Virus record (IMG/VR): IMGVR_UViG_3300008093_000065
Span: 1 to 24,480 of that record
Source of the DNA: a virus
Taxonomy: Duplodnaviria > Caudoviricetes
Reading direction: 5' to 3' (one strand)
Length of the DNA: 24,480 nucleotides
Made by a program: the position numbers and the translations under genes
The notes under the pieces: generated by a model
What the model was told of the DNA's origin: nothing
The model's input: only the letters and a program-made list of their open reading frames with translations
Database searches by the model: none
Part shown: one piece after another, positions 4,932 to 24,480 of the stretch
How positions within the stretch are numbered: position 1 is the first letter of the stretch
Layout of the letters: each line of letters starts with the position of its first letter

Positions 4932-4932
4932 T

Positions 4933-7674: not shown

Positions 7675-7676
7675 GG

Positions 7677-8111: not shown

Positions 8112-8116
8112 GGTGG

Positions 8117-8509: not shown

Positions 8510-8510
8510 T

Positions 8511-9107: not shown

Positions 9108-9109
9108 TG

Positions 9110-9418
9110 CTAACCCCGCTCTATTTCTGCGAAATAAACACGGTATGCCGTCATGCTTTCTGCCGGTTTTGCGATAACCATTCGCACGGTTTCGCCGGAT
9201 TCCAGCGTGATATCCAGCTTGTCATCACGCCGCATTTTATGGGCGCGTTTCAGGGTTATGCGGTAACCGTCGGCCATCATGCTGCCGCCTGCTTCATCGA
9301 GCATTTGCGATTTCAGGCAGGTTGCTTGCACCGGGCTTGTGTCCGGATGCAGAACGCACGGAAGCCCCCGCAGTGCCATTAATGTATCGATTGCCATTTC
9401 TGCGAGGGTATCCGTCAT
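9110..9418 (-). CDS. Putative head-tail joining protein (gpFII position)
   Basis: 102 aa, beta-rich, between the cement gene and gpZ; based mainly on position. Confidence 0.55.
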   Translation of the reverse strand: MTDTLAEMAIDTLMALRGLPCVLHPDTSPVQATCLKSQMLDEAGGSMMADGYRITLKRAHKMRRDDKLDITLESGETVRMVIAKPAESMTAYRVYFAEIERG

Positions 9419-9427
9419 GCGTCAGAC

Positions 9428-9757
9428 TCAGCAGTTCGGGATCAAGCGAACTTTAGCTTCAGCGGTGCTGGCTGCTGTCGCTTCGACGACGTAGCCGCAC
9501 TTCACGTTGCCGGACGCCGTGCTGGTTACCGTGCCGTCGGCCTTTGCGTACACAGTAGCGCCGAGTTCCAGATTGTCTGCCGGTACTTTTGGCAGGTTGT
9601 AAACGCTTCCGGTATCAATGCTGATGGTGTCGCCAGCTGCACCGGATGACTGGGCAACGCCTACAATTTTACCGTATACAAGCAGGTCGCCTGATTCTGC
9701 GTCCGCTGTCAGTGTGATGGCCAGAAACTGGCCGTCCTGAATTTTGTTCAGTGCCAT
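9428..9757 (-). CDS. DUF2190-family capsid cement/decoration protein
   Basis: N.IQDG, SGDLL..G..VGVA, GSVYNLPK, G.TVY motifs; follows the capsid gene; GGAG RBS. Confidence 0.85.
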   Translation of the reverse strand: MALNKIQDGQFLAITLTADAESGDLLVYGKIVGVAQSSGAAGDTISIDTGSVYNLPKVPADNLELGATVYAKADGTVTSTASGNVKCGYVVEATAASTAEAKVRLIPNC

Positions 9758-9793
9758 GGTGGTTCTCCGTTGGCTTAATTTGTAAGTGGTATT

Positions 9794-9825
9794 AAAAAGC
9801 CGCTGGTTTTACGCAGCGGCTTTTT
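9794..9825. terminator. Intrinsic terminator hairpin, potentially bidirectional, after the major capsid gene
   Basis: AAAAAGCCGCTG-gttttacg-CAGCGGCTTTTT, a perfect inverted repeat with A/T tails. Confidence 0.8.
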
Positions 9826-9852
9826 GGGTTAAGCGGTTAGGTTTTCTGACGA

Positions 9853-11979
9853 TTATGCGCCAGCGTTTTTGTGCAGGCCGCGGAAGTCGGCAGCGGCGGC
9901 GGCAAAGTCGTGGCGCACTTTCAGGATCATGGCGTCAGACTTAAAGTCGATCATGCTGTCGATGTACGCGCCCTCCTGGCCGTCGAGGTAGCCGTACACG
10001 ATGGTATCGATCAGCATCGGGTCAGCGGCGGCGAACCAGCCGGTAACGCCCAGGTTATCCAGCTCGGCTTCTACAACCAGGTTCATGGAGTTGATGAACG
10101 GGTTAACATCGCCGGATTTAGCAGCGGTGATGGCTGCCAGCACCTGTTGCGCTTCCAGCTCACGTTTAGCTGGTACGATCAGGAACTTAGGCGCCAGGTT
10201 CATGGCATCGCCAGTTTCGCCCTTCGGTGCAAAGGTGGTCTGCAGGCGCATCATTTCGCGGGCCTTGGCCAGCGTGTCCACGCTGATGGCGCCCGCAGCA
10301 CCGATGTTTTTATGGTCGCCATGGAACAGGTTTTTACCGGTTTCAGCCAGCGCCTGGCTTTTAGCCAGAATGCTGTAAATGGCCTTAACTTCCGCACGGG
10401 CAGCAGCGGAACCCAGTATCTGAGGTACGCGGCTCAGGGCATCCATGTCGTCGTTGATCAGGGTTTCACGGCTGATGGCGATCAGGCGGCCTTTGGTGGC
10501 GAGCTTGATTTTCTCCGCACTGTCTGCCAGTGCGCCGAATTCGTACTCACCGTTTTCCAGCTTGTCTTTCAGCTCCGGCGAGCTGGACAGCTTGGAGAGC
10601 TGCTTTTCTTTGAAGTTGGTCAGGTTGGTACGGCGACAGAAGCCGGTGAAAGTGCGTTGAACAGCGGTAAAACCGGCGGCCAGTTCATTACTTGCAACGT
10701 CGGCCAGAATGTTCGGCAGATCACTGGTGCTGATAGCCATTTGCGCAATCTGGTCGTGAGACAGGCCGTTGGTAGATACGCCGCCGTATTGCAGGGCCAT
10801 ACGCGACATTTCAATTAGGGTCATGCCTGCAAAGTCATTTGCTACACGGTCACCGGTGCCAGCGCGGGCACGCATGGCAGCGGCCATATCGGTACGCAGT
10901 TGCGCGTTGCCGCCATTGGACACGCGCACGCGGCCTGATGGCACAGTGCCTTTGTCGCGCTCGGCCACGGCGGCCAGCGCTTCGGCGCGGGCGGTGGCGA
11001 TATCGGTGCCGTTGTCGATCCAGTCGTTCAGTGCGCTGTCGGTCAATTTTGCTTGTGCAGCAATGCCGCGCAGCTCTTTTACGCGAACGCGCTCGGCGGA
11101 GATTGCTGCCTGAGCGTCTGCACCTGGCACGGGCGTCGCTGGCGCTGCCGGGGCGGCTGGGTCTTGTGGTGCTGGATTCGGTGCACCTGCCGGGGCTTGC
11201 ATTTTCATGGGGTCTTCCTCGTCGGAGTTGTCTGCTGCAGGTGCAGCATCGGGTGGTAAATCAGATTCTGTGTTTGGCTCTGGCACCGGTTCCGTAACCT
11301 CTGGCAGCTGCATCAGAGCAGCGGCTCCGGCCGGCATTGTGGTTGCGTCGAAGTCGTGGTGAGCCACGGCGGTTACTTCGCCGATGATTTCTGTAGCCAT
11401 GCCGTTTGCCAGACAGTCGGCGGCGGTGAGCCAGGCTTCTGCTTTCATCAGCGCTTTCCATTCGTCGGCACTGAGGTTTGTGCGGCTTGCGTAAATGTCG
11501 GCCACTTCACTGGTCCACATTTCCAGATCGTCAGCTGCTTTTCGCAGGTCGTCGGCGTTGCCTTCGACGTAATCCCATGCCTGATGTACAAATTGATAGG
11601 AATTTTTTGGCATACGGCGCACGTCACCCGCCAGTGCGACTACGGTGGCGATGCTGGCGGCAATGCCATCGATTGTTACTTCAACCGGCTTGCCGCAGTT
11701 GCGCAGTGCGTTGTAAATGGCCAGACCCTCTACAACAGAACCGCCATTGCTATGAATACGCACCTTTACCGCGGGGCCGCTTACCAGTGTTAATTGCTGG
11801 ATAACGCTGGCGGCGTCGAGTTCGTCCCACCAGTCGCCAATGATTCCGTAAATCATCAGGGTGCCGTCGGCAGCGATGTAGTTTTTCGCGGTAGTGCCGC
11901 GCACGGGTGCTTCCATACGGGCGTTACTGGTATCGGTAAAGGCCATGGCGACAGCCCGCGAAAGGTAGGTTTTATTCAT
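9853..11979 (-). CDS. ClpP-like prohead protease / scaffold / major capsid fusion protein
   Basis: N-terminal ClpP motifs (IHSNGGSV.EG.AIYN, IDGIAASIA, FVHQAW, EAWLTA), a Pro/Ala-rich linker, then a capsid domain (STSDLPNIL, ENGEY, ISRETLINDD, KVRHDFAA). Confidence 0.93.
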   Translation of the reverse strand: MNKTYLSRAVAMAFTDTSNARMEAPVRGTTAKNYIAADGTLMIYGIIGDWWDELDAASVIQQLTLVSGPAVKVRIHSNGGSVVEGLAIYNALRNCGKPVEVTIDGIAASIATVVALAGDVRRMPKNSYQFVHQAWDYVEGNADDLRKAADDLEMWTSEVADIYASRTNLSADEWKALMKAEAWLTAADCLANGMATEIIGEVTAVAHHDFDATTMPAGAAALMQLPEVTEPVPEPNTESDLPPDAAPAADNSDEEDPMKMQAPAGAPNPAPQDPAAPAAPATPVPGADAQAAISAERVRVKELRGIAAQAKLTDSALNDWIDNGTDIATARAEALAAVAERDKGTVPSGRVRVSNGGNAQLRTDMAAAMRARAGTGDRVANDFAGMTLIEMSRMALQYGGVSTNGLSHDQIAQMAISTSDLPNILADVASNELAAGFTAVQRTFTGFCRRTNLTNFKEKQLSKLSSSPELKDKLENGEYEFGALADSAEKIKLATKGRLIAISRETLINDDMDALSRVPQILGSAAARAEVKAIYSILAKSQALAETGKNLFHGDHKNIGAAGAISVDTLAKAREMMRLQTTFAPKGETGDAMNLAPKFLIVPAKRELEAQQVLAAITAAKSGDVNPFINSMNLVVEAELDNLGVTGWFAAADPMLIDTIVYGYLDGQEGAYIDSMIDFKSDAMILKVRHDFAAAAADFRGLHKNAGA

Positions 11980-13489
11980 CGGTCATTCCTGTTTTGTTTG
12001 CGGCTTCGCCTTGGGTGGTTGCCTCTGGATTAATGTTGCCCGCGCCGGAAACTTTGCGCGGATCGGTATCGAGGGTAATGCCGAATTGATCGAGCCATGT
12101 GTTCCACTCGCTGATTTGCAGCAGTTGCTGTTCTGGGTTTTCGCCGAGCTCGGCCAGCGCATCCTGCATGGACTTCAGGCCGGCACGGATCAGCGCAATC
12201 ATCGGCGGCACTTCGCGCGTCGGGTCGAACATTTCACGCGGCGGTTCAATCCATTTGCAGCGCATGGCATCCAGCGGGTTGCCGGCCAGCGCCTGCACTT
12301 CGGAGTACCATTGCCACACGCGCTGGCACAGATGCGGAATTAAAATGCGCTGACGGTGGTTGCCGATTTTGCGGTGCATGCCGTTAAAGCCGAGGCGGCC
12401 ACTGCTGAAGTTAACGCCGGTTAAATCGCCGGTTAGCTCTTCGTAGGTGATTCCGAAATCGGACGCAATGGTGCGCAGCTCTTCGCGCACAAAGTCGCTC
12501 TGCCCGTTCACATTCGGCGGGGTGTTGAAGTTCATTTCCTGATTGCTGCCGAGGCGTAAAATCAGGCCCGGTTCAGCGCGATCTGGGAGCGGATCTCCGG
12601 TTGCATTGCCAACGCCACCCATGGTTTTAACTGCGCCGACCATGCAGCTGGCGATTTTCATCAGCTCAAGGCGTGCATCTTGAAAGCTATCGAGGTTGCG
12701 AAGGCGGTTAAAGCTGGCCATGCCCCACGGCAAACCACGGTTCTGGCCGGGCTCGCGGCAGTCGAACAGGTGAATAACGCCTTCGGCATCATGGCGAACC
12801 GATGTGTTTTTATGGCGACTGAAAAACCCGCCCACTTCAGATGGGTGATTCGGGAATAACCAGTAGGCCACCACGGCGTCGTTGTCGTCGTATTCAACGC
12901 CCTGTATTACACGGCGGCCGTCGAAAACACCGTCTTTCATGTGGTCGAGATAATCGCCACTCAGTACTTTCAGCTGCAGCTGCACGCCGCTGATCGGTTC
13001 GAGCGTGCGCTTGCGTACGATTAAACATTCTCCGCTTTTTACCAGTTCCAACATGGTCTGAAACTGAATGCCGTACAGGTTGTGCTGGCCGTCCACATCG
13101 AGGTGAATGGATTCAGCCCAGGTATTAAACACACGCTGCGCAGCCTGCTGGCGTTTTGGTGCGCTGCGTCCAATGGTTTCAAGACGCGGGCGAATACCAG
13201 ACGACACTGTGTTGTAGGCAATGGCGTCGCAGGCGGCTTTGTGAATACTGTTGTTGCGGTAAAAGTCGCGGGCAATACGGCGGGCTTTTACCAGTTCTGA
13301 GCGGGTGATATTGCGCGCGGAGTTATCGCGTACATTCTGCGCACCACGGCGGCCAGCGCTGGTGCCTTCGTAGTAGCTGTTTTGCGCCCCCATTTTCTTC
13401 AGCTGTGCCAGCGCCTGGCGGCTGGCTTCACGCTCTACGCCGGCTGAAGGTGATAGCAGGTTGATCATGCTGTCGAGAATATTGGCCAT
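11972..13489 (-). CDS. Portal protein, lambda gpB family
   Basis: ARDFYRNN, QGVEYD, VIHLFD.REPGQ.RG, GITYEELTGDL..VNFSSGR, DPTRE motifs. Confidence 0.95.
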   Translation of the reverse strand: MANILDSMINLLSPSAGVEREASRQALAQLKKMGAQNSYYEGTSAGRRGAQNVRDNSARNITRSELVKARRIARDFYRNNSIHKAACDAIAYNTVSSGIRPRLETIGRSAPKRQQAAQRVFNTWAESIHLDVDGQHNLYGIQFQTMLELVKSGECLIVRKRTLEPISGVQLQLKVLSGDYLDHMKDGVFDGRRVIQGVEYDDNDAVVAYWLFPNHPSEVGGFFSRHKNTSVRHDAEGVIHLFDCREPGQNRGLPWGMASFNRLRNLDSFQDARLELMKIASCMVGAVKTMGGVGNATGDPLPDRAEPGLILRLGSNQEMNFNTPPNVNGQSDFVREELRTIASDFGITYEELTGDLTGVNFSSGRLGFNGMHRKIGNHRQRILIPHLCQRVWQWYSEVQALAGNPLDAMRCKWIEPPREMFDPTREVPPMIALIRAGLKSMQDALAELGENPEQQLLQISEWNTWLDQFGITLDTDPRKVSGAGNINPEATTQGEAANKTGMTDE

Positions 13490-13493
13490 AAAA

Positions 13494-13709
13494 TCAGCGA
13501 TAGCCTTTGCTGTGACTCATGAATGCAGGGGTATTGTTTTGGGTTGTGCTGCTGGGCAAGCCCAGTTCGGCACGGATTAAATTGCGCAGCGAGATCATTT
13601 CGTTAAGCGAGCGGTATTTCGTTGTTTGGCCATCGTATGTAAATTCGGTAACGCCAGCGGCGATGGCTTTTTCCAGCGCCTGCAGTTGCGTGGTTGTGAA
13701 GTTACTCAT
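13494..13709 (-). CDS. Head completion protein gpW-like
   Basis: 71 aa; LEKAIAAG..EFTYDG....YRSL.E; between terminase and portal. Confidence 0.85.
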   Translation of the reverse strand: MSNFTTTQLQALEKAIAAGVTEFTYDGQTTKYRSLNEMISLRNLIRAELGLPSSTTQNNTPAFMSHSKGYR

Positions 13710-15676
13710 TAGCGGTTCCAGTAGTCCGATTTGCGCCGCTCTTGTTGCGGGGCGCTGTTGCTATTCGTCGGCGTGATGCCATTTGTTAAGTCGAGGCCTA
13801 AATACTGCTGCGCGAATTTAACCGCAGCAGTGGCGTAGCGGCGGCAGTCGTGCGCTTCGTTACGCTTACCCTTCGGGCATTCCCAGCGCCAGGTTTCACG
13901 GCCACCAACGTAATGCAATTTCCTCTCTTCGGCGGTGAGCATGTTGAAGTATTCGGCGGTGTGGTATTCCGAATATGGCCAGTGACAGAAGCCGGGTGTG
14001 TCGGGCTCGCTGATCTCGAACCGGTTGGCCATTAAATCGCTGGTGTTGTTGGTTCCAACGATGGCGAGATAGCTGCCGTGGTCGGTTACTTTTTTGCTGC
14101 TGAAGCTGACAATCGGCCGGTTCGGTCCACCATCCCCTTTAACCGGTATCCACCAAGCCGGATCGACGGCGGCGGCATGTCGGTATACGTCGTCGGTAAA
14201 TCCGCCGCCGGAGTCATGGAACACCAGGTTGATGCCCATTTGCATGCCGTCTTCACGCTGCCAGTTGCGGCGCATGTATTGTGCAAGCTGATCCCAGATG
14301 CTTTGTTCTGCAAGGTTCCCCAGCAGCTCTCGATATTCGATAGACCAGCTTTGTTCGCCTTTACCCCAGCCGACTATTTCCCACGCAAAGCGGTTGCCCT
14401 GTGTATCCACCCCGGCGGTGATGTACAGCACATCACGCGGCAGTAATAACGTGGCGTTGTCGCTGGCTTTCGGGTAGTGCTCGCGGCGGTGCTTATAGAG
14501 TTGAGTGCCGTCGATCTTGCGGGCCACATCGTCGTGCCAATATTCGCCCAGTGTTGTATTCACAAAGCCCTGAAATGTCAGGCGGTCGGGTTTTGCGTCG
14601 AGATATTCCCCGACAATTTCCGACCATGGCGTGGTGGGCGAATAAGCAGCCCACACGATGAAGCACACATGGCGCGGTGTTTTTACTTCGCGGCCTGTTT
14701 CGTGATCGAAATAGTGAATGCCATCGTATGTTGCTACGCCGTTTTCATCATCAAGCCAGAGCGGATCGGCTTCGCTTATAACGTCGATAAATTCGTGGTA
14801 ACCGAATTCGCAGGCGCAGTGTTCGCAGAGATAGCGGGCACTGTCGGCAGTGTCTGTTTTGCTTGGGTGTTTATCCCATTTAATACCGTACGAAAGACCG
14901 GGTCCGCCCCACTTTAAGTACTGCAGCTTTTGGCAATGTGGGCATGGAACCCAACACCGAAGCCGGACATCGGCGGCGTGTTCGCGGCGCTCAATATGAC
15001 TCAGTGTTGAGGTTGTCGGTGTTGTCCCAAGGATTACTTTCGGAAAGCTGGAGCCTTTTGTTCGCTTGAACATCAGCGTGATCGGGTCACCCTCTTTTGA
15101 GGATTTGCCAGATACGTTTTGCACAAAGCCGTCGATTTCATCGCCGATAACAACGTCTTTCGACAGGGCGCGATAACCGCCGGCAGCCTGACCGCCGCGG
15201 ATATGCAGCGAACAGCCCAGCAGCTTTTTATAATCGACTTTGTTGTTCTCCGACTTTTTGTGCCAGTCAGGGAATATTTCTTTAATCGCTGAGCAGTCGC
15301 GGATGGCCGGGTCTAGCTCAGTGTTCACAAATTCTGCTGCTGCTGAGTCATCCTCTCGCCACAAGCCGATATTTCGGCGCTTGTGTTCGGCCAAGTACAG
15401 AGTGGCCGCCAATAGCATTTTGGTGTAACCGATACGCGCAGATTTGCGGAAATCCACTTCGCGAATATCGTCGTTGCCCATCGCGTTCAGAATGGCTTTC
15501 TGAACGGGCTGTGTTGTCCAGGGCCCTTCTACATAAGATGATTCTGGCGACAGATAAAAATGTTTATCTGCCCACTCAACTGCCGTCTGCGGACGTTGAA
15601 CCCTCAGAGATTCCATTCCCCGCCGAATCGCCATCAGGATCGACTGGGCTGTATCCGGTGAGATCTGGTTTAACAT
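13709..15676 (-). CDS. Terminase large subunit, lambda gpA family
   Basis: EWADKHFYL..ESS, KSARIGYTK (Walker A), VIGDEID (Walker B), GTTPT, CPHC/CEHC, TAGVDTQ, RNEAHDC. Confidence 0.96.
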   Translation of the reverse strand: MLNQISPDTAQSILMAIRRGMESLRVQRPQTAVEWADKHFYLSPESSYVEGPWTTQPVQKAILNAMGNDDIREVDFRKSARIGYTKMLLAATLYLAEHKRRNIGLWREDDSAAAEFVNTELDPAIRDCSAIKEIFPDWHKKSENNKVDYKKLLGCSLHIRGGQAAGGYRALSKDVVIGDEIDGFVQNVSGKSSKEGDPITLMFKRTKGSSFPKVILGTTPTTSTLSHIERREHAADVRLRCWVPCPHCQKLQYLKWGGPGLSYGIKWDKHPSKTDTADSARYLCEHCACEFGYHEFIDVISEADPLWLDDENGVATYDGIHYFDHETGREVKTPRHVCFIVWAAYSPTTPWSEIVGEYLDAKPDRLTFQGFVNTTLGEYWHDDVARKIDGTQLYKHRREHYPKASDNATLLLPRDVLYITAGVDTQGNRFAWEIVGWGKGEQSWSIEYRELLGNLAEQSIWDQLAQYMRRNWQREDGMQMGINLVFHDSGGGFTDDVYRHAAAVDPAWWIPVKGDGGPNRPIVSFSSKKVTDHGSYLAIVGTNNTSDLMANRFEISEPDTPGFCHWPYSEYHTAEYFNMLTAEERKLHYVGGRETWRWECPKGKRNEAHDCRRYATAAVKFAQQYLGLDLTNGITPTNSNSAPQQERRKSDYWNR

Positions 15677-16160
15677 CGATGAGTTGGTTACACATATTCG
15701 CGATGGTTTTCTGGATCAGCTCAATGCTACGACTCGTCAGCATCGGGGCGGCCAGCTTTATCTGCATTGGCAGTGCCCGTAACTGGGCGCTAACCATCTC
15801 CATCTGCTTGCCGACAACATCGGTGATGATGTCGACCGGTGCGTTTTCGCGGCGCAGGATTTTCAGCCGCTCTTTTTTCAGATCGGCATCGTATTTTTTC
15901 CGGCGGGCTTCTTCTCGCTCGGCATCGATAAAGCCTTCGTCGTCATCGCCGCCGTAGTCGTCTGGATCGCGTGGGGGTTCCGGTGCGGAGGTCTGGCCAC
16001 TGCCAATCCCCCTAAGATATGTGATGTATGCCAATCGGCAGGCATCGAGATCATAACCGCCCCGCCCCTTCGAGCCAGGCAGGATGCCATCTTTTGTCAA
16101 ATCACGAACACGGCGCTCTGACAGATCAAGGTGTTCAGCAACATCTGCTTGAGTTGGCAT
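15576..16160 (-). CDS. Terminase small subunit, Nu1-like
   Basis: N-terminal winged HTH (TQADVAEHLDLSERRVRDL...GGYDL..C..AYI.YLR) followed by a coiled coil. Confidence 0.9.
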   Translation of the reverse strand: MPTQADVAEHLDLSERRVRDLTKDGILPGSKGRGGYDLDACRLAYITYLRGIGSGQTSAPEPPRDPDDYGGDDDEGFIDAEREEARRKKYDADLKKERLKILRRENAPVDIITDVVGKQMEMVSAQLRALPMQIKLAAPMLTSRSIELIQKTIANMCNQLIDVKPDLTGYSPVDPDGDSAGNGISEGSTSADGS

Positions 16161-16180
16161 TTTTCACACCCGAAAACTAC

Positions 16181-16275
16181 AACCGGAACCGGAACCGGCT
16201 ACTCGAAAAAATTCCTTAAACAGACAAAAGCCGCGCGGCTTATACCCGCAATGGGACACCCCCTTGGAAGGACCC
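16181..16275 (-). other. Putative cos packaging site (cosQ-like, cosN-like, and a downstream AACCGG x3 repeat)
   Basis: Minus strand GGGTCCT (16275-16269), 17 bp, then TTGCG-GGTATAAGCCG-CGCGG-CTTTT. This parallels lambda cosQ GGGTCCT and cosN TTACG-GGGCGGCGACCT-CGCGG-GTTTT, and lies just upstream of the small terminase. Confidence 0.7.
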
Positions 16276-16310
16276 ACATAGGGGGTGGGTGGCCATGACA
16301 TAGGTCGAGA

Positions 16311-16496
16311 CTATCGGCACCGCTCCACCTGCTCAAAGTAAAGCAGCAGGTCGCGCTGGTGTTCAGTCTCCAGCACCACCACTCCGTTCGGCTGGATTGG
16401 TGGCAACCTTGGAACAATCGGTGGGCAGTTGCTGCGGTTCGATTGCATCAGGCTGCACCCGACCAAAGCGATTAGCCCAAGCACTACCAGGATCAT
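16311..16496 (-). CDS. Outer-membrane lipoprotein, o-spanin (Rz1)-like
   Basis: Hydrophobic signal with lipobox LVG-C, Pro-rich mature part, overlaps the upstream gene in another frame. Start at 16496 preferred; 16520 is an alternative. Confidence 0.65.
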   Translation of the reverse strand: MILVVLGLIALVGCSLMQSNRSNCPPIVPRLPPIQPNGVVVLETEHQRDLLLYFEQVERCR

Positions 16497-16602
16497 CCTG
16501 AACTCGCTGTGCCTTATCATTGCGACGGCGCTCCATTTCGCGCTGCACGGCCTGCAAAGCTAGCCGGAGCAGCGTCAAAATAACTCCCAGCCCCTTCCCC
16601 AT
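16363..16602 (-). CDS. Small putative i-spanin (Rz)-like lysis protein
   Basis: N-terminal hydrophobic/amphipathic helix, then a charged helix; overlaps the lipoprotein gene as Rz/Rz1 do. Confidence 0.5.
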   Translation of the reverse strand: MGKGLGVILTLLRLALQAVQREMERRRNDKAQRVQDDPGSAWANRFGRVQPDAIEPQQLPTDCSKVATNPAERSGGAGD

Positions 16603-16607
16603 TAGCC

Positions 16608-17048
16608 CTATTTCAACCGGATATCAGAGAAAGGCTTTTGCTTAACTTTGTGCTTAAAGATAACACCAGCCAAGGGCTCAAGCAGGTAACGGTATAACTT
16701 TCCGTATGCAGTATTGTCATCCGGAGTGTCTGTAAAATTGATGTATGCGGTTGCTAAAAAGTGCGCGACAACAACGCCAACCAATAGCCAGTCAACCCAC
16801 GTGAACGACCCATTAATCAACTGACTAATAAGCAATTCAAGCAGCGACGTAAACACATCAGAGTCCGGCATTGTCGTTACGTCAGCAGCAGCCATACCAC
16901 TACCAAACAGAAGCACAATAAAAACACCCGCATGCTTACGAACCTCGCGAACCAGGGCGGTGGCGAGACTCACTAACTCAATGCCGGCGACATAAATAAC
17001 CGACAGCGTACAAACCAGAACTATTGCGAGCAGAATAATCAAAGGCAT
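16608..17048 (-). CDS. Multi-pass membrane protein, putative holin
   Basis: ATG overlaps the endolysin stop (TAATG); about 3 hydrophobic segments; TDTPDDN..GKLY..LE.LAG motif; basic C-terminal tail. Confidence 0.6.
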   Translation of the reverse strand: MPLIILLAIVLVCTLSVIYVAGIELVSLATALVREVRKHAGVFIVLLFGSGMAAADVTTMPDSDVFTSLLELLISQLINGSFTWVDWLLVGVVVAHFLATAYINFTDTPDDNTAYGKLYRYLLEPLAGVIFKHKVKQKPFSDIRLK

Positions 17049-17437
17049 TATGGGTAACTCCAAAAGTGTGGGCGCGGACGCCATGGTGCTTCCGGTGCAT
17101 CATCCAGATGAACGATGCGCTTTTTGTACTCGCCGTACTGACGAACGCCAATACCGGTAAAACCGTGCTTATTGGCGAGTGCTATTAAGCGGGTAACATC
17201 AGCACCTGATATCTGCACATCAACAGCACAGCCCATTGCGTGTGTACCAGGCTGAGACTTTGCAATCTCAATCGAATGCTTTGGGCTACGATAGCCAGAG
17301 CTGATCACCATTGGCTTTGCAAAGTCATCACGCAGCCGCTGCAGTCGATCCATAAAACTGGGAAGAATCGCCAACTCCCCGGTTTCTTTGCAGCGCATCT
17401 CGTGTTGCGGAAAGTTTTTCCAAGGCCAATCAGTCAT
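17048..17437 (-). CDS. Endolysin, peptidase M15A family (Zn peptidase)
   Basis: KNF...E..C, ISSGYRS..H, H..G.AVD, GFTGIG, VHLD motifs. Confidence 0.92.
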   Translation of the reverse strand: MTDWPWKNFPQHEMRCKETGELAILPSFMDRLQRLRDDFAKPMVISSGYRSPKHSIEIAKSQPGTHAMGCAVDVQISGADVTRLIALANKHGFTGIGVRQYGEYKKRIVHLDDAPEAPWRPRPHFWSYP

Positions 17438-17667
17438 TCTGAAACTCTCTTCTGGCGGTCCTGCAGAACAGCCAAATCACGTTCGTGCCGATTGATCAGC
17501 TTTGCATGCTCGTCAATGCGGGTCTGGTGGCGGATGTGCTGCTCATCGTGAACATCAAGTCGCGTGCTGATTTGCCCAATCATTTTCGAAAAGGCAATAA
17601 CCTGCACAGCCACGGTAATGAACAGCGTCAAGGCTGATACGACGAGTGAAGGATCAATTTCAGGCAT
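17434..17667 (-). CDS. Single-TM plus coiled-coil lysis-cassette protein (holin/antiholin-like)
   Basis: One N-terminal hydrophobic helix, then a heptad-like His/Arg-rich tail; first gene after the terminator; ATGA overlap with the endolysin. Confidence 0.55.
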   Translation of the reverse strand: MPEIDPSLVVSALTLFITVAVQVIAFSKMIGQISTRLDVHDEQHIRHQTRIDEHAKLINRHERDLAVLQDRQKRVSE

Positions 17668-17731
17668 AGGAATAAGGTGCCCGGCATGGACGGTGCCGGG
17701 GCTTTTCTCGGGTCAGGACGGGACCAGAAAC

Positions 17732-17851: not shown

Positions 17852-18037
17852 CTATCGTGTTGGCTCCGCCATCTTGATCCGGAATAACTCCCATAGCCCA
17901 GGGTGCATGCGCCTATCCCCTGCTTCCCACTGCTGCCATGTGCGCAACTTACTATGAACCAGCTCGGCAGCGGCAGTCTGGCTCAATCCGGCAGCTTCTC
18001 TGGCGGCGCGAACCTCACGCGGCATTGGGCTGGTCAT
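17852..18037 (-). CDS. Small XRE/HTH repressor, anti-CRISPR-associated (Aca-like)
   Basis: 61 aa, VRAAREAAGLSQTAAAELV....RTWQQWEAG; ATGA-coupled to the AcrIF11-like gene. Confidence 0.8.
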   Translation of the reverse strand: MTSPMPREVRAAREAAGLSQTAAAELVHSKLRTWQQWEAGDRRMHPGLWELFRIKMAEPTR

Positions 18038-18492
18038 GCTTTAACCAGCTCAGATTCGTGGCCCAGCATATCAACGAGATACGAAACGCCCTGCTCGTCG
18101 CTAACAGCTACGCCCCGGAATCCCAGCAGCTTTGCGGCGCGGGCGGTGTAATGCTGGATATCCCAGGAGGCATCGGCCATATCTTCAGGTTCTACATTAC
18201 TGTCGATGTCGTAGATTGAGGCGCTTTCTTCAATCAGCGCTTCTGCGGCATCTTCTTCGATATCGAATCGAGCAGCGACTTCTGCGACAAGCGCGGAAAG
18301 CTTTTCTGCATTCTCATGATAAAACAGAGCGCTGGCTTCGATTACTGCGGCATCATCGAGATCGATGGCGTAGATAATATAACTACCGGCGGTCATCACG
18401 TATTCGTCATGAGCAAAGAACAAGAACTCACCGAAGCGGCCGGATGTGTTGATGCTGGTTATTTCAACGGGGCTGGTGTGGGTGAGTTGCAT
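18034..18492 (-). CDS. AcrIF11-like anti-CRISPR (putative ADP-ribosyltransferase)
   Basis: 152 aa, acidic. N-terminal MQLTHTS..EI..I...G.FG..LF and C-terminal WDIQ....AAKLLGF.GV.VSDEQGVSYL match the recalled AcrIF11 pattern (MELFHGS.EEI.EI...G.FGGLF; WELQRLRG.LA..LGY..VEMEDEHGTTWL). Start at 18492 has a GGAG RBS; the longer TTG start at 18546 is the promoter -35 hexamer. Confidence 0.8.
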   Translation of the reverse strand: MQLTHTSPVEITSINTSGRFGEFLFFAHDEYVMTAGSYIIYAIDLDDAAVIEASALFYHENAEKLSALVAEVAARFDIEEDAAEALIEESASIYDIDSNVEPEDMADASWDIQHYTARAAKLLGFRGVAVSDEQGVSYLVDMLGHESELVKA

Positions 18493-18517
18493 AAGGTTTC
18501 TCCGTGTTGATAAGCAA

Positions 18518-18546
18518 ATAATGCGCTCAATGAGCGTATTCGTCAA
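18518..18546 (-). promoter_or_regulatory. Sigma70 promoter with an overlapping inverted-repeat operator (acr-aca promoter)
   Basis: TTGACG-17 bp-CATTAT. The palindrome AATGCGCTCA-A-TGAGCGTATT (18520-18540, 9/10 match) fills the spacer. Confidence 0.8.
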
Positions 18547-18585: not shown

Positions 18586-18918
18586 TCAATCCCCACTGTA
18601 CCGCCCGTTCCCATAATCATCTGCTGGCGTTTTTTCCTTTGGCGGCTGCGTGCGGCGCCGCAGCTGATGGACTCGCGCAGACTGCCTGTTCAGCTGAGTA
18701 CGCAAAAGCAACAACGCCTCATGCTCCGCCAGGGGCTGACCATCGGGCGGTATCCATCCTGCAGCGTTGCACTGAATACATGCTGCTGATGGGCTGCTAT
18801 CAAACATGCCAGCCACCAGCCCTTTTCCACCGCAGCCGCTACAGCGAATCCACGTTGCCTTACTGAAGCGCTGGCGCTCACACTGGCGGCTTAGGTTGCT
18901 CTTCTTCCACCCAGTCAT
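18586..18918 (-). CDS. Zinc-finger protein (CxxCxGxG...CxxC), function unknown
   Basis: CSGCGGKG and CIQCNAAG; TGATG-coupled to the upstream Q-like gene. Confidence 0.7.
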   Translation of the reverse strand: MTGWKKSNLSRQCERQRFSKATWIRCSGCGGKGLVAGMFDSSPSAACIQCNAAGWIPPDGQPLAEHEALLLLRTQLNRQSARVHQLRRRTQPPKEKTPADDYGNGRYSGD

Positions 18919-19559
18919 CAGATAGCTATCGCGGGTGCTGTATTGATTACATCCATGCCCGGCGCAGCAGGATCTCGAAAACTGCGAACAGATGCCAATG
19001 CTGCGCCAACCGAAGGCAAGCCAGCTTTATCCAGCTCAGCGCACGCCTGCTCAACCAACGCTGCCAGATACCCATAATCACGGCCAAAATTCCGGCCAGA
19101 CAGATCAAATCCAACCGCACCGCCACTTATGCGGCGCACAGCACGATCAAAATGTGCAGGTTTGCGGTATTTACGGTGGCCGGTCACAGCCATAGCCCGG
19201 TAGTTGTCCATATGGGCATACACAAGCAGCTGAGTGCGCAGCGCCACAGGATCACTAAGGGCTGCCAGATCGACATCAACCAGCGCAGCAATGGCTGCAA
19301 CAGCCACCTCCTGATTTGAGCGGATAACAGCAAACACCGCCGGGCCATAGGCCCACATCAACCAAGCGCGGATGTGATTCGGCAACTTTTCAACTGCAGA
19401 GATAATTTTTGCGGCTTCGTAACGACTGGCCAGCCGGTGAGTGCTGGTGGTCATTGGCCGGCCACCGGCAGAGCCTGTAAAGTCTGAATTTCCCTGCAAC
19501 TCTATGCTGTAGGCTTCGAGAATGGCGACGCGCGCCGAGAACTTTGTGGTGATGATCAT
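18918..19559 (-). CDS. Putative late antitermination protein Q-like
   Basis: Position ahead of the late promoter and lysis genes; I..AVEKLP.H.RAWL.WAYG motif as in Q-like proteins. ATG at 19559 preferred to the 19589 start. Confidence 0.55.
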   Translation of the reverse strand: MIITTKFSARVAILEAYSIELQGNSDFTGSAGGRPMTTSTHRLASRYEAAKIISAVEKLPNHIRAWLMWAYGPAVFAVIRSNQEVAVAAIAALVDVDLAALSDPVALRTQLLVYAHMDNYRAMAVTGHRKYRKPAHFDRAVRRISGGAVGFDLSGRNFGRDYGYLAALVEQACAELDKAGLPSVGAALASVRSFRDPAAPGMDVINTAPAIAI

Positions 19560-19654
19560 GCGGTGCCCCTGTCCTGAGTCCAGAGGCAAATATACGATGA
19601 TCAGTGAAAGCTAACAGGCCCTATAATTATGAACGAAGAGCTGCTTTAACTCTA

Positions 19655-20542
19655 TCATTCGACGTTGTACTTGGCGTTTTCCAGGCTCTTATGGATCTGA
19701 AAAGAAAGCTGATGAATAGTACTCATAAAAAGACCGTATTGGTATTCTGGATCTTGATCCTGAGGTAAATTCTCAAGCATCTCAAACGCATCCTCAAATC
19801 CGATAGCCGCATTAGTTTTAACGATTCTAATGACGGAGGCAATATCACGTAGTGACGCTAAATCACTGAAATACTCATCAAGAAGCTTTGAACCCTCCTC
19901 ATCCACGGATTCGCGCAGTTTGACCCTGCTCCACTTGCTTCTAAATTTTATTATTTCAGTATTAAGAGTCTTAAAGAAAATATCTCTAAACCAAAAGTCG
20001 TCATAAATAGACTTCCGGTTTTGGTAGGCAAAATTTTGATACATGCGCCAAGTATTAAATAGTGACACAACCAAAGTAATGGACGCTATTACAAGACTGA
20101 CAATCCAAAATGAAATTGGCTTATCTTCATTATTACTGGAGCCAATTTCGCGGGATTCTTTGGCGCTATAAATCTCATCTGGCGCGCCATGCTTTGCGGG
20201 TAGAATCCTCTCGTCACCCTTCACTTCAGGTAAAGTCTTCTTATTCGCTGAATCAGTATCAACTGCAACTACATCGGCCTCAACTTCAACAACATCTGTC
20301 GTCGCGTCACTAGGCTGAATAGGTTCCTTTCTGGAGTTATCGGAATCAATTTTGAGGATTTTGATACTTGGAGGAGTTACTTCAACCAAATGAGACTGAT
20401 GTGCTGGAGTAGCCAGGCCGCCATCATCTAATGCATTTACGCGAACTGCCAAGTCGGAATTTTTTTGAATACCCTCCTCGGCATACGAGGCCGAGGAGGA
20501 TGAAAATATAAAAACAAGGCAGAGATTAAACAGCCATTGCAT
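19655..20542 (-). CDS. Uncharacterised bitopic membrane protein (signal peptide, acidic low-complexity exported region, one TM, helical cytoplasmic domain)
   Basis: Start MQWLFNLCLVFIFSSSSASYA|EE overlaps the STAS gene end; TM segment ISFWIVSLVIASITLVVSLF; AT-rich DNA. Confidence 0.75.
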   Translation of the reverse strand: MQWLFNLCLVFIFSSSSASYAEEGIQKNSDLAVRVNALDDGGLATPAHQSHLVEVTPPSIKILKIDSDNSRKEPIQPSDATTDVVEVEADVVAVDTDSANKKTLPEVKGDERILPAKHGAPDEIYSAKESREIGSSNNEDKPISFWIVSLVIASITLVVSLFNTWRMYQNFAYQNRKSIYDDFWFRDIFFKTLNTEIIKFRSKWSRVKLRESVDEEGSKLLDEYFSDLASLRDIASVIRIVKTNAAIGFEDAFEMLENLPQDQDPEYQYGLFMSTIHQLSFQIHKSLENAKYNVE

Positions 20543-20858
20543 TGACCGCTCGGGAAAAGCCTCGATTAATGCCACGCAACAATTCCTTCTGGTTTGTATC
20601 ATTCAGCTGTTTGAAATCAATATTTTCTAAGAGTTCTTTTTTTGTTGTGTATTTATCAAAGAGCTTAGATAGCATTCCCAAGAAATATGAGTTGGTAATG
20701 ACAGTATCGCCATCATTCTGCAACACAATTTTACAATTAGAGGCTACATCTGAGAGTTCCAGAAGCTCACATGCATCTTTACCATTGTCCCGGCCAGAAA
20801 GTAGCTTTTTACCTCTGGTGAACCTACCTAGGTCAATAATCATCGTATTGTCACTCAT
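20526..20858 (-). CDS. STAS-like domain protein (DUF4325-like, anti-anti-sigma fold)
   Basis: 110 aa; IDL, LSGRDNGK, ITNSYFLGM matching the DUF4325-type pattern with a candidate phosphoacceptor Ser; ATGA-coupled to the ATPase. Confidence 0.75.
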   Translation of the reverse strand: MSDNTMIIDLGRFTRGKKLLSGRDNGKDACELLELSDVASNCKIVLQNDGDTVITNSYFLGMLSKLFDKYTTKKELLENIDFKQLNDTNQKELLRGINRGFSRAVNAMAV

Positions 20859-22228
20859 TCATCATCCTCCTCTTTGAGAGGGAATCTGATACTTATAGCA
20901 ACGCCAGGGAAGAATGATCGGCTCAACTTCCGGACGTAGCGAGGATCGGGCGGCGATCTTAAACTATTTTGCTCATTAAAGGAAATGATCAATTGCTCAT
21001 CCCCTTCTTCAGCATCAGGGTTATTGTAGTTCGAAAGCTGAGAAAGCCTATAAGTTCCATCAAAAATAATATGTGTCTTACCTGAAACAATGCTCATCAT
21101 GGGCTTCACGTCTGCTCGTCCAAACTTCTGAGAGAACTCTTCACACATTCTTTCAAAAAACTGGATAAGGAATACCGTCCCTTGGCCGTTGTTTTCACTA
21201 TCATCCTCATTTTTACAGCTATAAAGCTGCTGCAGGGCGGCAACAGTAATCAGCTGTTCTATAGTAAATTCACCCTCATGGGCGTTGGCATAATCCAATA
21301 CAAGATTGCGGCTATAACTCCCTTCCGGAAGCATAAGGAACGAATCTGCAATAGTTATGCCAAAATTAAATATTGACACTTCAAAGTTCTGGCTTTTTGA
21401 GTGACTATTTAGATACCCTCTTGCATACCATACATGCCCTCCTTTTCCCTCTCTAACAGAATGTCTTTCGGCGTTATCTAAAACCTCACTCACCGACTTC
21501 ATAAGCAACTCAGAAGCCTCATTGGTAAGCTCTAGCTTGTGATCACGGATACAGTCATTCACATGCTCAGTGAGTTTTTCAGATGCAATGGTCTTATCAT
21601 CAACACTATGGGCGCTTGGAGTTGATTTTTTGACGCTCTTGTAAGAAAAAAGATGCTGCTTTTCAGTCGGAAGTGGGACTGGGCGGGACGACTTCGCATT
21701 GAGCTCCTTGATAATGCCGATCTCATTGATAAGTTGTTGATGGTCAGGACTCTCCGGCAAGCTACCGCTTATTTTGATCGGGCTCTTTGTTAATCGACGC
21801 CATTGCTCAGCAACCTCAGCACCAACACCAAGCAGCGCCTCGGAAGTCAAGTTGTATGATCTAACGCGATGATGATCAACCATCACGCTCTTGACCTTCT
21901 TATCAATGCACGTCTCAACCGCCTCCCATATGCTCAAAAGTGATTCTTCGGGATATTCAATAAAGCAGCTGCGAGCAGGCAAACGGACACGTCGATACCT
22001 ACCTCGCTGCGACTTGGGCAACCTTGGACTGTCAGAGAATTTACGGAAGTAATTCAAAAGATAATCGGTGCGAGCCCAGCGCTGGTGACGACCTTCTTCA
22101 GAAATAGGCCCAAACCTTCTGACATGCTTTAACTTTTTATAGTGCTTGGCTCGAGCGCATCCAGCTAAATGGCGCTTCCACCCCTTTGTATTGCATGCAC
22201 GAGAATAATGCCTATCACTAAGGCGCAT
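20855..22228 (-). CDS. GHKL (HATPase_c-like) ATPase/Ser kinase with a basic N-terminus and a probable degenerate STAS-like domain
   Basis: N-box SEVLDNAERHS, G1-like FNFGITI, G2 NGQGT, terminal FPGVAISIRF; no TM segment and no obvious HisKA H-box. Confidence 0.8.
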   Translation of the reverse strand: MRLSDRHYSRACNTKGWKRHLAGCARAKHYKKLKHVRRFGPISEEGRHQRWARTDYLLNYFRKFSDSPRLPKSQRGRYRRVRLPARSCFIEYPEESLLSIWEAVETCIDKKVKSVMVDHHRVRSYNLTSEALLGVGAEVAEQWRRLTKSPIKISGSLPESPDHQQLINEIGIIKELNAKSSRPVPLPTEKQHLFSYKSVKKSTPSAHSVDDKTIASEKLTEHVNDCIRDHKLELTNEASELLMKSVSEVLDNAERHSVREGKGGHVWYARGYLNSHSKSQNFEVSIFNFGITIADSFLMLPEGSYSRNLVLDYANAHEGEFTIEQLITVAALQQLYSCKNEDDSENNGQGTVFLIQFFERMCEEFSQKFGRADVKPMMSIVSGKTHIIFDGTYRLSQLSNYNNPDAEEGDEQLIISFNEQNSLRSPPDPRYVRKLSRSFFPGVAISIRFPLKEEDDE

Positions 22229-22263
22229 TCAATCTTCCCTGTGAGAATCAAAAATAGCGGACG

Positions 22264-22317
22264 ATTCTGATACCTATACACAGCAATATCAATAGATGGC
22301 GCATGCTCTTGAGTCAA
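22264..22317 (-). promoter_or_regulatory. Candidate promoter(s) for the GHKL-STAS cassette
   Basis: TTGATA-17-CAGAAT (22292-22264) and TTGACT-17-TATTGA (22317-22289) in the 99-bp AT-rich gap. Confidence 0.35.
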
Positions 22318-22327
22318 ATAACAAAAA

Positions 22328-22822
22328 CTACAGTTTAAAGTACAGCGCCAACAGAGCCGCATCACGAGTATCTGAATTGCTCCGGCCTGCCCAGCCAGTA
22401 ATCCGGTTAAAGTATTCCGCATCAGCCTTTGCCTGGCGCTTTGCCGGACCTTGCAGTGGCTTTACCAGCTGAATATCTGCACCCATGTGCCGCAAACACT
22501 CCACCAATACCCGGGCCACCCCCTTTACCTGCCCAACCTTCTGGGCAATTGCAGCGTGCGTGCGGGCGTTTGTGCGGGCGCGGTGGTACGTCGTTTTGTC
22601 GTGCTCAACGTCTTCAACAACAAACAAAGCGGCGCAGGCCACCAGCTGGCGGGCATACTGAAGCAAATCAGGGAATGCCATGGCCTGAAGACTGGTCAGC
22701 TGGCCGCCTTCAACCACCGCAACACCACTTTTAACCAGGTCAGGGTCAATGCCAACCACCAGTCGACCAGATACAACCTTGGCCGCTGGATTTCGTCTTA
22801 CCGGTGTTTTTTGTTCAGCCAT
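22328..22822 (-). CDS. RuvC-like (RNase H fold) Holliday junction resolvase
   Basis: VVGIDPD...SGVA, FVVED, KVGQVKG, RDAALLA acidic catalytic pattern. Confidence 0.8.
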   Translation of the reverse strand: MAEQKTPVRRNPAAKVVSGRLVVGIDPDLVKSGVAVVEGGQLTSLQAMAFPDLLQYARQLVACAALFVVEDVEHDKTTYHRARTNARTHAAIAQKVGQVKGVARVLVECLRHMGADIQLVKPLQGPAKRQAKADAEYFNRITGWAGRSNSDTRDAALLALYFKL

Positions 22823-24221: not shown

Positions 24222-24480
24222 CTAAAAGGGTATGTCATCATCAAAGTCATCAAATCCATTGCTATGCGCAGGGACTGGCTGCTGATCAGCAGGCGCAGGC
24301 TGCTGGCCGCCATGAATTTGCCCCGCCATCGCCCCGGCCGACTGATATCCACCTGCAGGCTGGCCAGCACCCGCAGGGCGTGAGCTGCACATTGTCATAT
24401 CGCTGGCGATGATTTCGGTGGTGTCGCGTTTAATGCAGCCATTCTCCCACTCACGGGAGCGCAGCTTGCCCTCGATGTAC
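24222..24480 (-). CDS. ssb: Single-stranded DNA-binding protein, 3' part; runs off the right end
   Basis: Manual translation gives YIEGKLRSREWE...TTEIIA, a Gly/Gln/Pro linker, and the acidic tip FDDFDDDIPF*. Confidence 0.93.
   Translation of the reverse strand, partial: YIEGKLRSREWENGCIKRDTTEIIASDMTMCSSRPAGAGQPAGGYQSAGAMAGQIHGGQQPAPADQQPVPAHSNGFDDFDDDIPF

Follow-up and report, generated by a model that had tools for sequence, protein, structure and literature searches.

A kinase, STAS and membrane protein cassette in a Caudoviricetes genome as a candidate anti-phage switch of the VapKSC kind

Kinases of the partner-switch type are familiar as gates of sigma factors. The question raised by the cassette described here is what such a kinase would control when its STAS partner is followed by a gene for a membrane protein. 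The cassette is carried by a prophage and lies in a window of 24,480 nucleotides, i.e., positions 1 to 24,480 of the IMG/VR virus record IMGVR_UViG_3300008093_000065, and it had been proposed from the sequence alone (hereafter, the original prediction) that it encodes an undescribed phospho-switch for defence or exclusion. Work published in 2026 on CapKS and VapKSC showed that, in immunity, such kinases control a repressor in one case and an RNase in the other (PMC13373217).

Layout and genomic setting of the cassette

Genes 1 and 2 join through an ATGA overlap, and genes 2 and 3 through an overlap of 17 nt, both as originally described (Table 1); the latter is found again in enterobacterial relatives, which favours the gene 3 start at 20542 over the first ATG at 20602, from which a protein of 315 residues would result. 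The AT-rich character of the insert is also confirmed: the GC content is 42.8% at 19655–22327 versus 54.9% and 56.3% on the flanks, the hand counts given with the original prediction (17/60, 18/60 and 39/60) are exact, and at all 63 homologous loci examined the cassette has a lower GC content than its flank (63/63). Its location between a resolvase and a Q-like gene agrees with the families detected, weakly in the case of the Q-like gene. The candidate promoters that had been attributed to the cassette fared less well: a sigma-70-like candidate is present in the 99-nt gap 5' of gene 1, but the scan gave 5 sites versus 4.9 ± 2.6 in shuffled sequences, i.e., not above chance, and the count of the terminator scan was likewise at chance level.

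Table 1. Features of the cassette, its products and its immediate flanks
Feature	Position	Strand	Basis
Gene 1, 457 aa	22228-20855	minus	ORF
Gene 2, 110 aa	20858-20526	minus	ORF
Gene 3, 295 aa	20542-19655	minus	ORF
Holliday junction resolvase family gene (upstream flank, outside the cassette)	22328..22822	minus	phrog_1770, E 5e-14
Q-like antiterminator candidate (downstream flank, outside the cassette)	18918..19589	minus	phrog_304, E 1e-4 (weak); phrog_3373, E 2e-11
Candidate sigma-70-like site upstream of gene 1, consensus match 9/12	22264..22292	minus	promoter scan
Gene 1, basic helical arm	about residues 6-62		model
Gene 1, STAS domain	residues 74-182		model
Gene 1, SpoIIAB-like GHKL domain	residues 190-454		model
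Gene 1, N box	E248/N252/H256		
Gene 1, G1 box	Asn288 replacing Asp		
Gene 1, G2 box	G348/G350		
Gene 3, signal-like segment	residues 1-21		hydropathy
Gene 3, acidic linker	residues 22-140		
Gene 3, membrane helix	about residues 143-161		
Gene 3, stalk with conserved Trp184, then cytoplasmic four-helix bundle			predicted

In four DNA runs, zero variant letters were seen within the trio where the contigs of these runs reach, and no cassette-free form was found. Genes 2 and 3 are covered by contigs of all four RNA libraries (4/4), a coverage that does not by itself prove transcription. Contig pieces of more than 25 nt were absent from 4500–17700, where the structural genes lie, in these four RNA runs, while both the trio and the AcrIF11 region were covered; since the trio had served to find the runs, and since they consist of contigs, this was not counted as lysogen-specific expression.

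The survey of trio conservation proposed with the original prediction showed that the three genes are kept as a unit across several phyla and are widespread; the kinase family comprises 791 clusters at 50% identity (E up to 1e-30), with zero relatives among 50,697 GenBank phages. In 15 of 74 loci the cassette lies between the P2 portal gene and gpA, and Table S5B of Rousset et al. 2022 (PMC9122126) lists 155 occurrences of the arrangement called system 19 in the E. coli P2 prophage hotspot, in keeping with the accessory or defence slot that had been suspected; an E. coli allele was found in 23 of 5426 complete genomes. The three proteins of the P2-type allele of E. coli are WP_000723541.1, WP_000763711.1 and WP_001548207.1. 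Of 31 genome loci, 14 have no neighbour within 1.8 kb that is clearly mobile or defence-related, and some loci adjoin housekeeping genes. Neither the 23 window ORFs scanned nor the 109 neighbour ORFs of the 31 loci include a sigma factor or a PP2C phosphatase, and a close phage relative sharing the Q-like gene was not found. Pfam, PADLOC 2.0.0 and NCBIfam gave no name to the three window proteins, and related trios had no match in PADLOC (six trios) or NCBIfam (four trios), a negative outcome for the PADLOC check that the original prediction had put forward.

The predicted kinase and its STAS partner

The GHKL domain of the gene 1 model is nearest to SpoIIAB (1l0o, Z 11.0, rmsd 3.7, 140 aligned), the type that had been anticipated, and also matches 6m36 (Z 8.8); Foldseek with gene 1 shows SpoIIAB in the top rows (E 1.6e-3), and a further match of the model is 4qtp (Z 6.8, rmsd 3.0, 94 aligned). 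Residues E248, N252, H256, G290, G348 and G350 are identical in 230/230 kinase homologues. The canonical G1 box (DxGxG) is absent: among the 230 kinases, the Asp column is occupied by Asn 193 times, by Ser 28 times and by Asp itself just 7 times, and Thr or Ser takes the place of the second Gly in 226; VanS and ThkA are active kinases with an Asn in this box (bioRxiv 2022.12.12.520123). The basic arm has a net charge of at least +10 in 87% of 222 homologues. The only library match of gene 1 was phrog_3364, of unknown function. The internal STAS domain and the basic N-terminal arm of gene 1 went beyond the features originally described, as did the signal-peptide-like start of gene 3, for which hydropathy was the criterion.

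Gene 2 encodes a stand-alone DUF4325-type STAS protein, the homologues of which have about 100–130 residues and are STAS only; DUF4325 was detected by Pfam in 4 of 63 family members, and also in the Atlas. Since it carries no winged-helix domain, the gene 2 product cannot be a CapS-type repressor. The expected STAS partner with a serine was borne out, as Ser57 is invariant in 60/60 and 61/61 distinct homologues and aligns with the phospho-serine of VapS.

Using hhalign, the kinase family profile was aligned with that of six VapK-type kinases (probability 96.4%, E 1.3e-9, 279 columns), and the STAS profile with that of nine VapS-type proteins (92.0%, E 6.7e-7), with Ser57 falling on the VapS serine. 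The reference STAS protein of locus L094, where a PIN gene comes next, matches VapS of PDB 9Z7O with an E of 1.8e-16. Single-sequence comparison with the L094 kinase and STAS protein was weak (E 0.0032 and 0.073, respectively), the relationship being clear by profiles only, and a PDB sequence search with the kinase and STAS profiles gave no match, the CapS and VapS chains being absent from the rows. Judged by the profile alignments, VapK and VapS are remote homologues of gene 1 and gene 2, respectively. It has been reported that VapS needs its C-terminal helix (residues 94–116) for VapC inhibition, and that the aromatic residue that stacks on ssDNA is Phe54 in VapK and Trp68 in CapK (PMC13373217). 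The VapS alignment ends at residue 105 of 110 in gene 2 versus 96 of 116 in the VapS-type reference, so that 5 versus 20 residues remain. The VapK Phe column is polar in the window family (Ser124 in gene 1), and the column of Phe87, a residue present in 221/230 kinase homologues and replaced by Ser in the window copy, may match CapK Trp68 when inspected by eye.

The membrane protein and the possible output of the switch

The third gene had been described as a membrane protein, with neither a sigma factor nor a PIN domain, and the gene 3 model agrees with this, being all-helical with a membrane helix and no PIN. Third genes fall into one membrane-helix family in 58 of 63 cases, and the third-gene swapping for which the original prediction had suggested a survey was not found within this kinase family. 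Fold searches returned generic bundles only, the Atlas unnamed clusters only, and a protein search gene 3 itself as the sole match; no consistent Pfam domain occurs in the third gene across 35 members. Trp184 is the only invariant residue (35/35), and no catalytic residues are conserved. According to the positive-inside rule, the bundle is on the cytoplasmic side in 61/63 homologues, and therefore the STAS protein can reach it; the part outside the membrane has 40 residues or fewer in 34/63, and the periplasmic segment is longer than 80 residues in 21/63, the window copy included. Gene 3 diverges fastest, with a median tree distance of 5.1 versus 3.7 and 2.9 for the other two genes. It is the presumed effector, and its toxicity is argued from gene position and analogy because gene 3 is without a named family and its fold is generic.

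A complex prediction for the STAS protein and the cytoplasmic part of gene 3 gave 0.51 versus 0.01 for the best control (runs of 0.22, 0.51 and 0.60; contact agreement of at least 64%; partner pLDDT of at least 66). Of the solved complexes, 116 of 157 came up to the mark set for complex scores, as did 2 of 215 mismatches; among those reaching it with a score of 0.60 or lower were just 18 of the 157 solved complexes, yet both mismatches. These values give weak support to the binding of the STAS protein to the gene 3 product. The original suggestion that the STAS protein holds a membrane effector gains from this score, weakly, and from the published analogue VapKSC.

We favour, with a probability of roughly 55%, a toxin-antitoxin switch against phages that resembles VapKSC. 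In it, the single-pass membrane protein would be bound and kept inactive by the STAS protein; upon infection or DNA damage the predicted kinase would phosphorylate Ser57, and the gene 3 protein thus freed would cause arrest or death of the cell. Phosphorylation, release, toxicity and protection from phages are proposed by analogy with VapKSC. The most speculative steps are the trigger, where the basic arm and the STAS-GHKL groove may bind a nucleic acid, and the killing, which may proceed via membrane depolarisation after oligomerisation. A bolder version, to which we give somewhat less than even odds, is that a membrane toxin is under the direct control of the SpoIIAA-like STAS protein and that a non-canonical kinase, possibly GTP-using and with the basic arm as nucleic-acid sensor, triggers membrane-based abortive infection by phosphorylating this STAS protein. 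Counting against the favoured reading are the Asn or Ser of the G1 box, the polar Phe column, the short C-terminus of the STAS protein, the lack of a PADLOC match and the 14 loci lacking a clear mobile or defence neighbour.

Gene 3 might instead keep phage DNA from crossing the inner membrane without killing the cell; it would act in the lysogen and be toggled by the kinase and the STAS protein, i.e., a switchable superinfection exclusion. A single-pass membrane protein found in prophage accessory slots, with a long periplasmic segment in a subset of homologues including that of the window, would suit this role, and its fast divergence is expected of a phage-facing protein; however, conservation falls on the cytoplasmic part, 34/63 homologues have hardly any periplasmic part and many loci lie outside recognisable prophages, and we consider exclusion improbable. 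Gene 3 might also provide the input, as an anchor or a detector of envelope damage that keeps the STAS protein and perhaps the kinase at the membrane, with the kinase basic arm, or freed STAS protein acting on a host target, as the output. The gene 3 model is similar to the four-helix sensor bundles of TorS (Z 10.9, rmsd 3.6, 108 aligned) and QseE (Z 10.6, rmsd 3.4, 107 aligned), the absence of conserved catalytic residues and the charge of the kinase arm agree with such a role, and the weak complex prediction is equally compatible with it. Nevertheless, designed bundles reach equal Z scores, all within the range of generic matches, the known sensor bundles are periplasmic whereas that of gene 3 is cytoplasmic, and in VapKSC and CapKS the kinase itself is the sensor (PMC13373217). 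A periplasmic-sensor role is unlikely because the same 34 homologues expose next to nothing beyond the membrane, which weakens the original idea of the membrane protein as sensor, and we give the input role as a whole little credence.

It is also doubtful that the cassette is not chiefly anti-phage, being instead a general DNA-damage or stress toxin-antitoxin or an addiction module that stabilises its element, in which gene 1 may serve as a scaffold that binds nucleotides and has little activity as a kinase. The non-canonical G1 box and the loci adjoining housekeeping genes point in this direction, and the authors of the VapKSC study describe the boundary between stress and phage responses as blurred (PMC13373217); against it stand the repeated occurrence in the P2 Q-A hotspot and the invariance of the N box, the G2 box and the STAS serine.

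Comparison with known systems

System 19 of the P2 hotspot, labelled with HATPase_c and DUF4325, is of the same family as the cassette: its three proteins bear the motifs of the L007 trio by a motif search of Table S5B, with one TM in protein 3; this trio is homologous to that of the window in all three genes, and the L007 kinase and gene 1 share 33% identity. System 19 is catalogued with no experiment on it, not being among the cloned systems of Tables S2A/S2B, and the accessible part of PMC9122126 states no mechanism. The word "undescribed" in the original prediction has to be narrowed: the arrangement appears in Table S5B of that work and the switch logic has been published for VapKSC. Rst_3HP (hp + hp + hp, pFR109, PMC9122126), inspected by eye as given in the accessible part of that source, shows neither an N box nor a STAS serine motif nor a membrane helix and looks unrelated, and the DefensePredictor main text has no mention of STAS, HATPase or GHKL.

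The pairs SpoIIAB-SpoIIAA and RsbW-RsbV are the best structural matches for the GHKL domain and the STAS folds; unlike SpoIIAB and RsbW, gene 1 has no sigma factor or PP2C phosphatase among the neighbouring ORFs scanned, carries an extra STAS domain and has a non-canonical G1 box. With CapK and CapS the cassette shares a GHKL kinase with an internal STAS domain, a STAS protein as actual or presumed substrate and a link to immune loci (PMC13373217), whereas gene 2 is STAS only, and the gene 1 model opens with long basic helices instead of a recognisable HTH.

VapKSC (Chambers et al., EMBO J 2026, PMC13373217) is a toxin-antitoxin system with anti-phage action whose operon protected against one phage by about 2 logs; its third gene is the toxin and VapS the antitoxin, and S48E abolishes binding. 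It is the GHKL, DUF4325 and PIN relative that the original prediction had mentioned. Like VapKSC, the cassette has the order kinase, STAS protein and third gene, with a STAS-GHKL kinase (N252 in 230/230) followed by a stand-alone DUF4325-type STAS protein with a conserved serine. Unlike VapKSC, its third gene codes for a predicted membrane helix and four-helix bundle and no PIN nuclease, its kinase has 457 residues versus about 300, and carries the basic arm together with insertions in the lid and C-terminal parts and Asn in the G1 box, its STAS protein appears by alignment to be missing most of the C-terminal helix of VapS, and its column aligned with the ssDNA-stacking Phe of VapK is non-aromatic; the cassette is not VapKSC, because gene 3 replaces the VapC nuclease. 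If the favoured reading is true, gating by such kinases would extend to a membrane effector, and what the P2 defence hotspot of E. coli commonly carries would be explained; if the bolder version is true, a new membrane effector family would be defined, and a membrane effector would be the third output of one plug-in phospho-switch, after the DNA binding of CapKS and the RNase of VapKSC.

Setting of the cassette in the phage genome

The 24,480-base virus record encodes a terminase, a portal, a Clp-capsid fusion and a tape measure protein, and the window phage is of lambdoid type. As described in the original prediction, three minus-strand ORFs joined by two overlaps are inserted with a gene of a resolvase family on one side and a Q-like gene on the other; the hand-made GC counts agreed with ours, and the insert is indeed AT-rich, with a GC content of 42.8% versus 54.9% and 56.3% on its flanks. 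The candidate promoters that the trio was said to have of its own are not above chance, with 5 sites against 4.9 ± 2.6 in shuffled sequences. A search with the resolvase returned four other phage contigs, and the closest two, with identities of 68% and 51%, lack the trio after the resolvase; therefore, the cassette is accessory. The zinc-finger-like gene that follows the Q-like gene in the window has a counterpart (27% identical) directly after the resolvase in a comparison locus (L079:6495-7270).

Features of the window that are discussed in the text
Feature	Position	Strand	Match or content
Gene 1, STAS-GHKL putative kinase (457 aa)	20855-22228	-	
Gene 2, STAS protein (110 aa)	20526-20858	-	
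Gene 3, membrane protein (295 aa)	19655-20542	-	
Q-like gene and the zinc-finger-like gene after it	18586-19589		
AcrIF11-family anti-CRISPR ADP-ribosyltransferase	18034-18546	-	NCBIfam NF052490, E 1e-51
Small HTH gene	17852-18037	-	HTH_31, E 7e-8
714-aa ORF among tail genes, low GC (0.39-0.45)	2303-4447	-	no Pfam or NCBIfam match

The AcrIF11-family gene and the small HTH gene after it form an acr-aca-like pair located 1.1 kb from the trio, which is covered by RNA-library contigs in three of four runs. The 714-aa ORF is possibly a second accessory or host-range gene. Metatranscriptome contigs from all four runs cover genes 2, 3 and the end of gene 1, and one run also covers parts of the remaining gene 1, this coverage denoting only presence in the RNA libraries. 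At position 22966 and at four places near the end (24425-24441), all outside the trio, the four DNA runs differ from the window.

Conservation and distribution of the trio

That the three genes keep together elsewhere was borne out by a neighbourhood survey of 74 loci in which the kinase was found (31 viral, the window phage's own copy included, and 43 genomic): the STAS gene is next in 73 and the third gene is present in 72, the misses being contig ends. An iterated profile, whose late rounds may drift, joined 58 of the 63 distinct third genes at E <1e-3, the best unrelated ORF having an E of 0.077. A metagenome set of 79 loci, less 2 identical to the window, partly duplicates the first set and is not fully independent; in it, the STAS gene occurs in 69/69 loci with room and its serine in 61/61 distinct STAS proteins. 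The third gene was recognised in 52 of 58, and the remaining six have a membrane-helix ORF at that place (E 0.001-1.6; best reverse-strand decoy, E 0.33). Across 56 loci, the three genes have correlated tree distances (Mantel 0.62, 0.74 and 0.37; p 0.001), which shows joint inheritance, not co-evolution. According to record titles, the hosts include Proteobacteria, Firmicutes, Bacteroidetes and others, and the GC content of the trio is below that of its flanks in 63/63 loci (median 9.4 points).

In 15 of the 74 loci (L035 being a duplicate of L003) the trio lies between the P2 portal and gpA genes, a position so annotated in one E. coli genome; this P2-type allele is found in 23 of 5426 complete E. 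coli genomes. Rousset et al. 2022 (PMC9122126) described this site as a defence hotspot, and in their Table S5B the trio appears as system 19, with 155 occurrences; it is not among the cloned systems examined in Tables S2A/S2B. The trio is real, widespread and already catalogued, and of the suggestion that it was undescribed there stands only that no paper testing or explaining it was found by a full-text search, mostly beyond subscription papers, in which a recent validation could be missed; it also has no match in a PADLOC release dating from 2023. Table S1B of the same work holds a second "HATPase_c | DUF4325" trio with a one-TM protein (system 69, P4 hotspot, 9 occurrences). Judged by eye, the kinase of this second trio shares the basic N-terminal arm and the Pro-x-x-Phe motif, although its G1 box has the canonical Asp; kinases of more than one clade may therefore take part in the kinase-STAS-membrane design.

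A reading by hand of the scan of neighbouring ORFs places an integrase, relaxase, phage, restriction-modification or toxin-antitoxin gene at most 1.8 kb away in 17 of 31 genome loci (the 43 less 11 duplicates or short loci and one without an ORF to scan), a count made without a background control. In one locus (L060:4250-10108), with an SNF2 helicase/DUF4391 pair on one side and a DNA methylase on the other, the trio is apparently inside a restriction-modification-like operon; in two others it adjoins type I hsdM (L045) and ApeA (L033).

Features of the three proteins

The AlphaFold2 model of gene 1 (mean pLDDT 89.3, pTM 0.86) shows two long helices at the N terminus, followed by a STAS domain and a GHKL domain. 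The STAS domain (74-182) matches the anti-sigma antagonist 4qtp (Z 6.8, rmsd 3.0, 94 aligned), and the best structural match of the GHKL domain is SpoIIAB (1l0o; Z 11.0, rmsd 3.7, 140 aligned), with which Foldseek agrees weakly, RsbW (6m36) scoring Z 8.8. Residues E248, N252, H256, G290, G348 and G350 are unchanged in all 230 distinct homologues of at least 380 aa. The G1-box Asp position is Asn in 193 of these, Ser in 28 and Asp in 7; this Asp to Asn change is rare, yet found in VanS and ThkA, and one kinase that carries it prefers GTP, as cited in the VanS preprint (10.1101/2022.12.12.520123). Phe87 is kept in 221/230 and is Ser in the window copy, where the DNA runs show no alternative letter. 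The arm at the N terminus is basic, with a median net charge of +14 and a charge of at least +10 in 87% of 222. The family has 791 representatives at E up to 1e-30, and among 300 genomes sampled from the class of G001 two have a strong match, one of them the seed genome itself.

A close relative of gene 2 is named DUF4325 in UniRef, and 4 of 63 family members match PF14213 at E ≤0.01. For gene 2, the Atlas returned DUF4325 clusters by structure (TM 0.68, which meets the Atlas bar) and by features (0.89, a lead only). Ser57 is present in 60/60 distinct homologues. In the sampled class, DUF4325 most often occurs at the C terminus of a single protein of roughly 345 aa (L082-L110), which begins with an HTH-like part and also has a GHKL N/G1 box; a second protein with a C-terminal DUF4325 (300 aa; L047:9108-10010) lies about 0.9 kb downstream of one trio.

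Gene 3 begins with a signal-like segment, followed by an acidic linker of 119 aa and a membrane helix, and its model (pLDDT 87.8) shows a continuous stalk running into a four-helix bundle, for which fold searches gave generic matches only. Of 63 distinct homologues, 61 have Lys/Arg residues after, not before, the membrane helix; therefore, the bundle is predicted to be cytoplasmic. The length before the helix is at most 40 aa in 34, 41-80 in 8 and above 80 in 21 of the 63, and the sole invariant residue is Trp184 (35/35). A lipobox-like Cys at residue 26-27 was seen in enterobacterial homologues (strict in L010, L013, L021 and L022; loose in L005 and L007-L009). Unimolecular spanins cross the periplasm with a lipidated N terminus and an inner-membrane helix; homologues with both could have a periplasm-spanning topology.

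A candidate membrane switch and its relation to VapKSC

By analogy, we favour, with a probability of about 0.55, a reading in which the STAS protein would bind gene 3 at its cytoplasmic stalk and bundle and silence it until infection or DNA damage sets off the kinase, which would phosphorylate Ser57; gene 3, once released, would arrest the cell at the membrane. Complex prediction lends weak support to the binding of gene 3 by the STAS protein (0.51 versus 0.01 for the best control; runs 0.22/0.51/0.60; contacts agreeing to 64% or more, partner pLDDT 66 or above), in a calibration passed by 116/157 solved complexes and 2/215 mismatches; only 18 of the 157, but both mismatches, passed with a score of 0.60 or under. 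In L026 (5691-7020) the kinase gene is in pieces and the STAS and membrane genes are intact, as expected if loss of the trigger is harmless; the near-identical L025 kinase is whole. Against the arrest reading count the non-canonical G1 box of gene 1 and the lack of any toxin likeness in gene 3. Three rival readings are each unlikely, and to the same degree: that the trio is a switchable exclusion system, that gene 3 serves as an anchor or sensor, and that the whole is a general stress or addiction module.

The closest published switches are CapKS, in which CapK phosphorylates CapS once activated by ssDNA, and vapKSC, a toxin-antitoxin operon protective against one phage, where VapS inhibits the VapC nuclease and a phosphomimic frees it (Chambers et al. 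2026, PMC13373217); the word "transmembrane" is absent from the main text of that paper. A PIN family coupled to DUF4325 genes has also been reported (PMC7824862, PMC5499597, PMC6514570). Natural vapKSC-type loci (L094, L115, L117 and L118) served as references, the L094 STAS protein, with a PIN gene next to it, matching the VapS structure at E 1.8e-16. Profile comparison linked gene 1 to vapKSC-type kinases (96.4%, E 1.3e-9; a six-row profile, in which two kinases come from pairs where no PIN gene is in view). It likewise linked gene 2 to the STAS proteins of these loci (92.0%, E 6.7e-7), Ser57 falling on the conserved serine of the latter; given these links, the cassette plausibly works like VapKSC. 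Two apparent differences count against the arrest reading: as aligned, the ssDNA-stacking column of VapK is polar in the gene 1 family, and the inhibitory tail of VapS seems mostly missing from gene 2. As originally predicted, the cassette lacks a PIN gene and has a membrane protein at that position, and for this reason it is not a VapKSC member; the trio would be a variant of the VapKSC design in which a membrane protein replaces the PIN nuclease.
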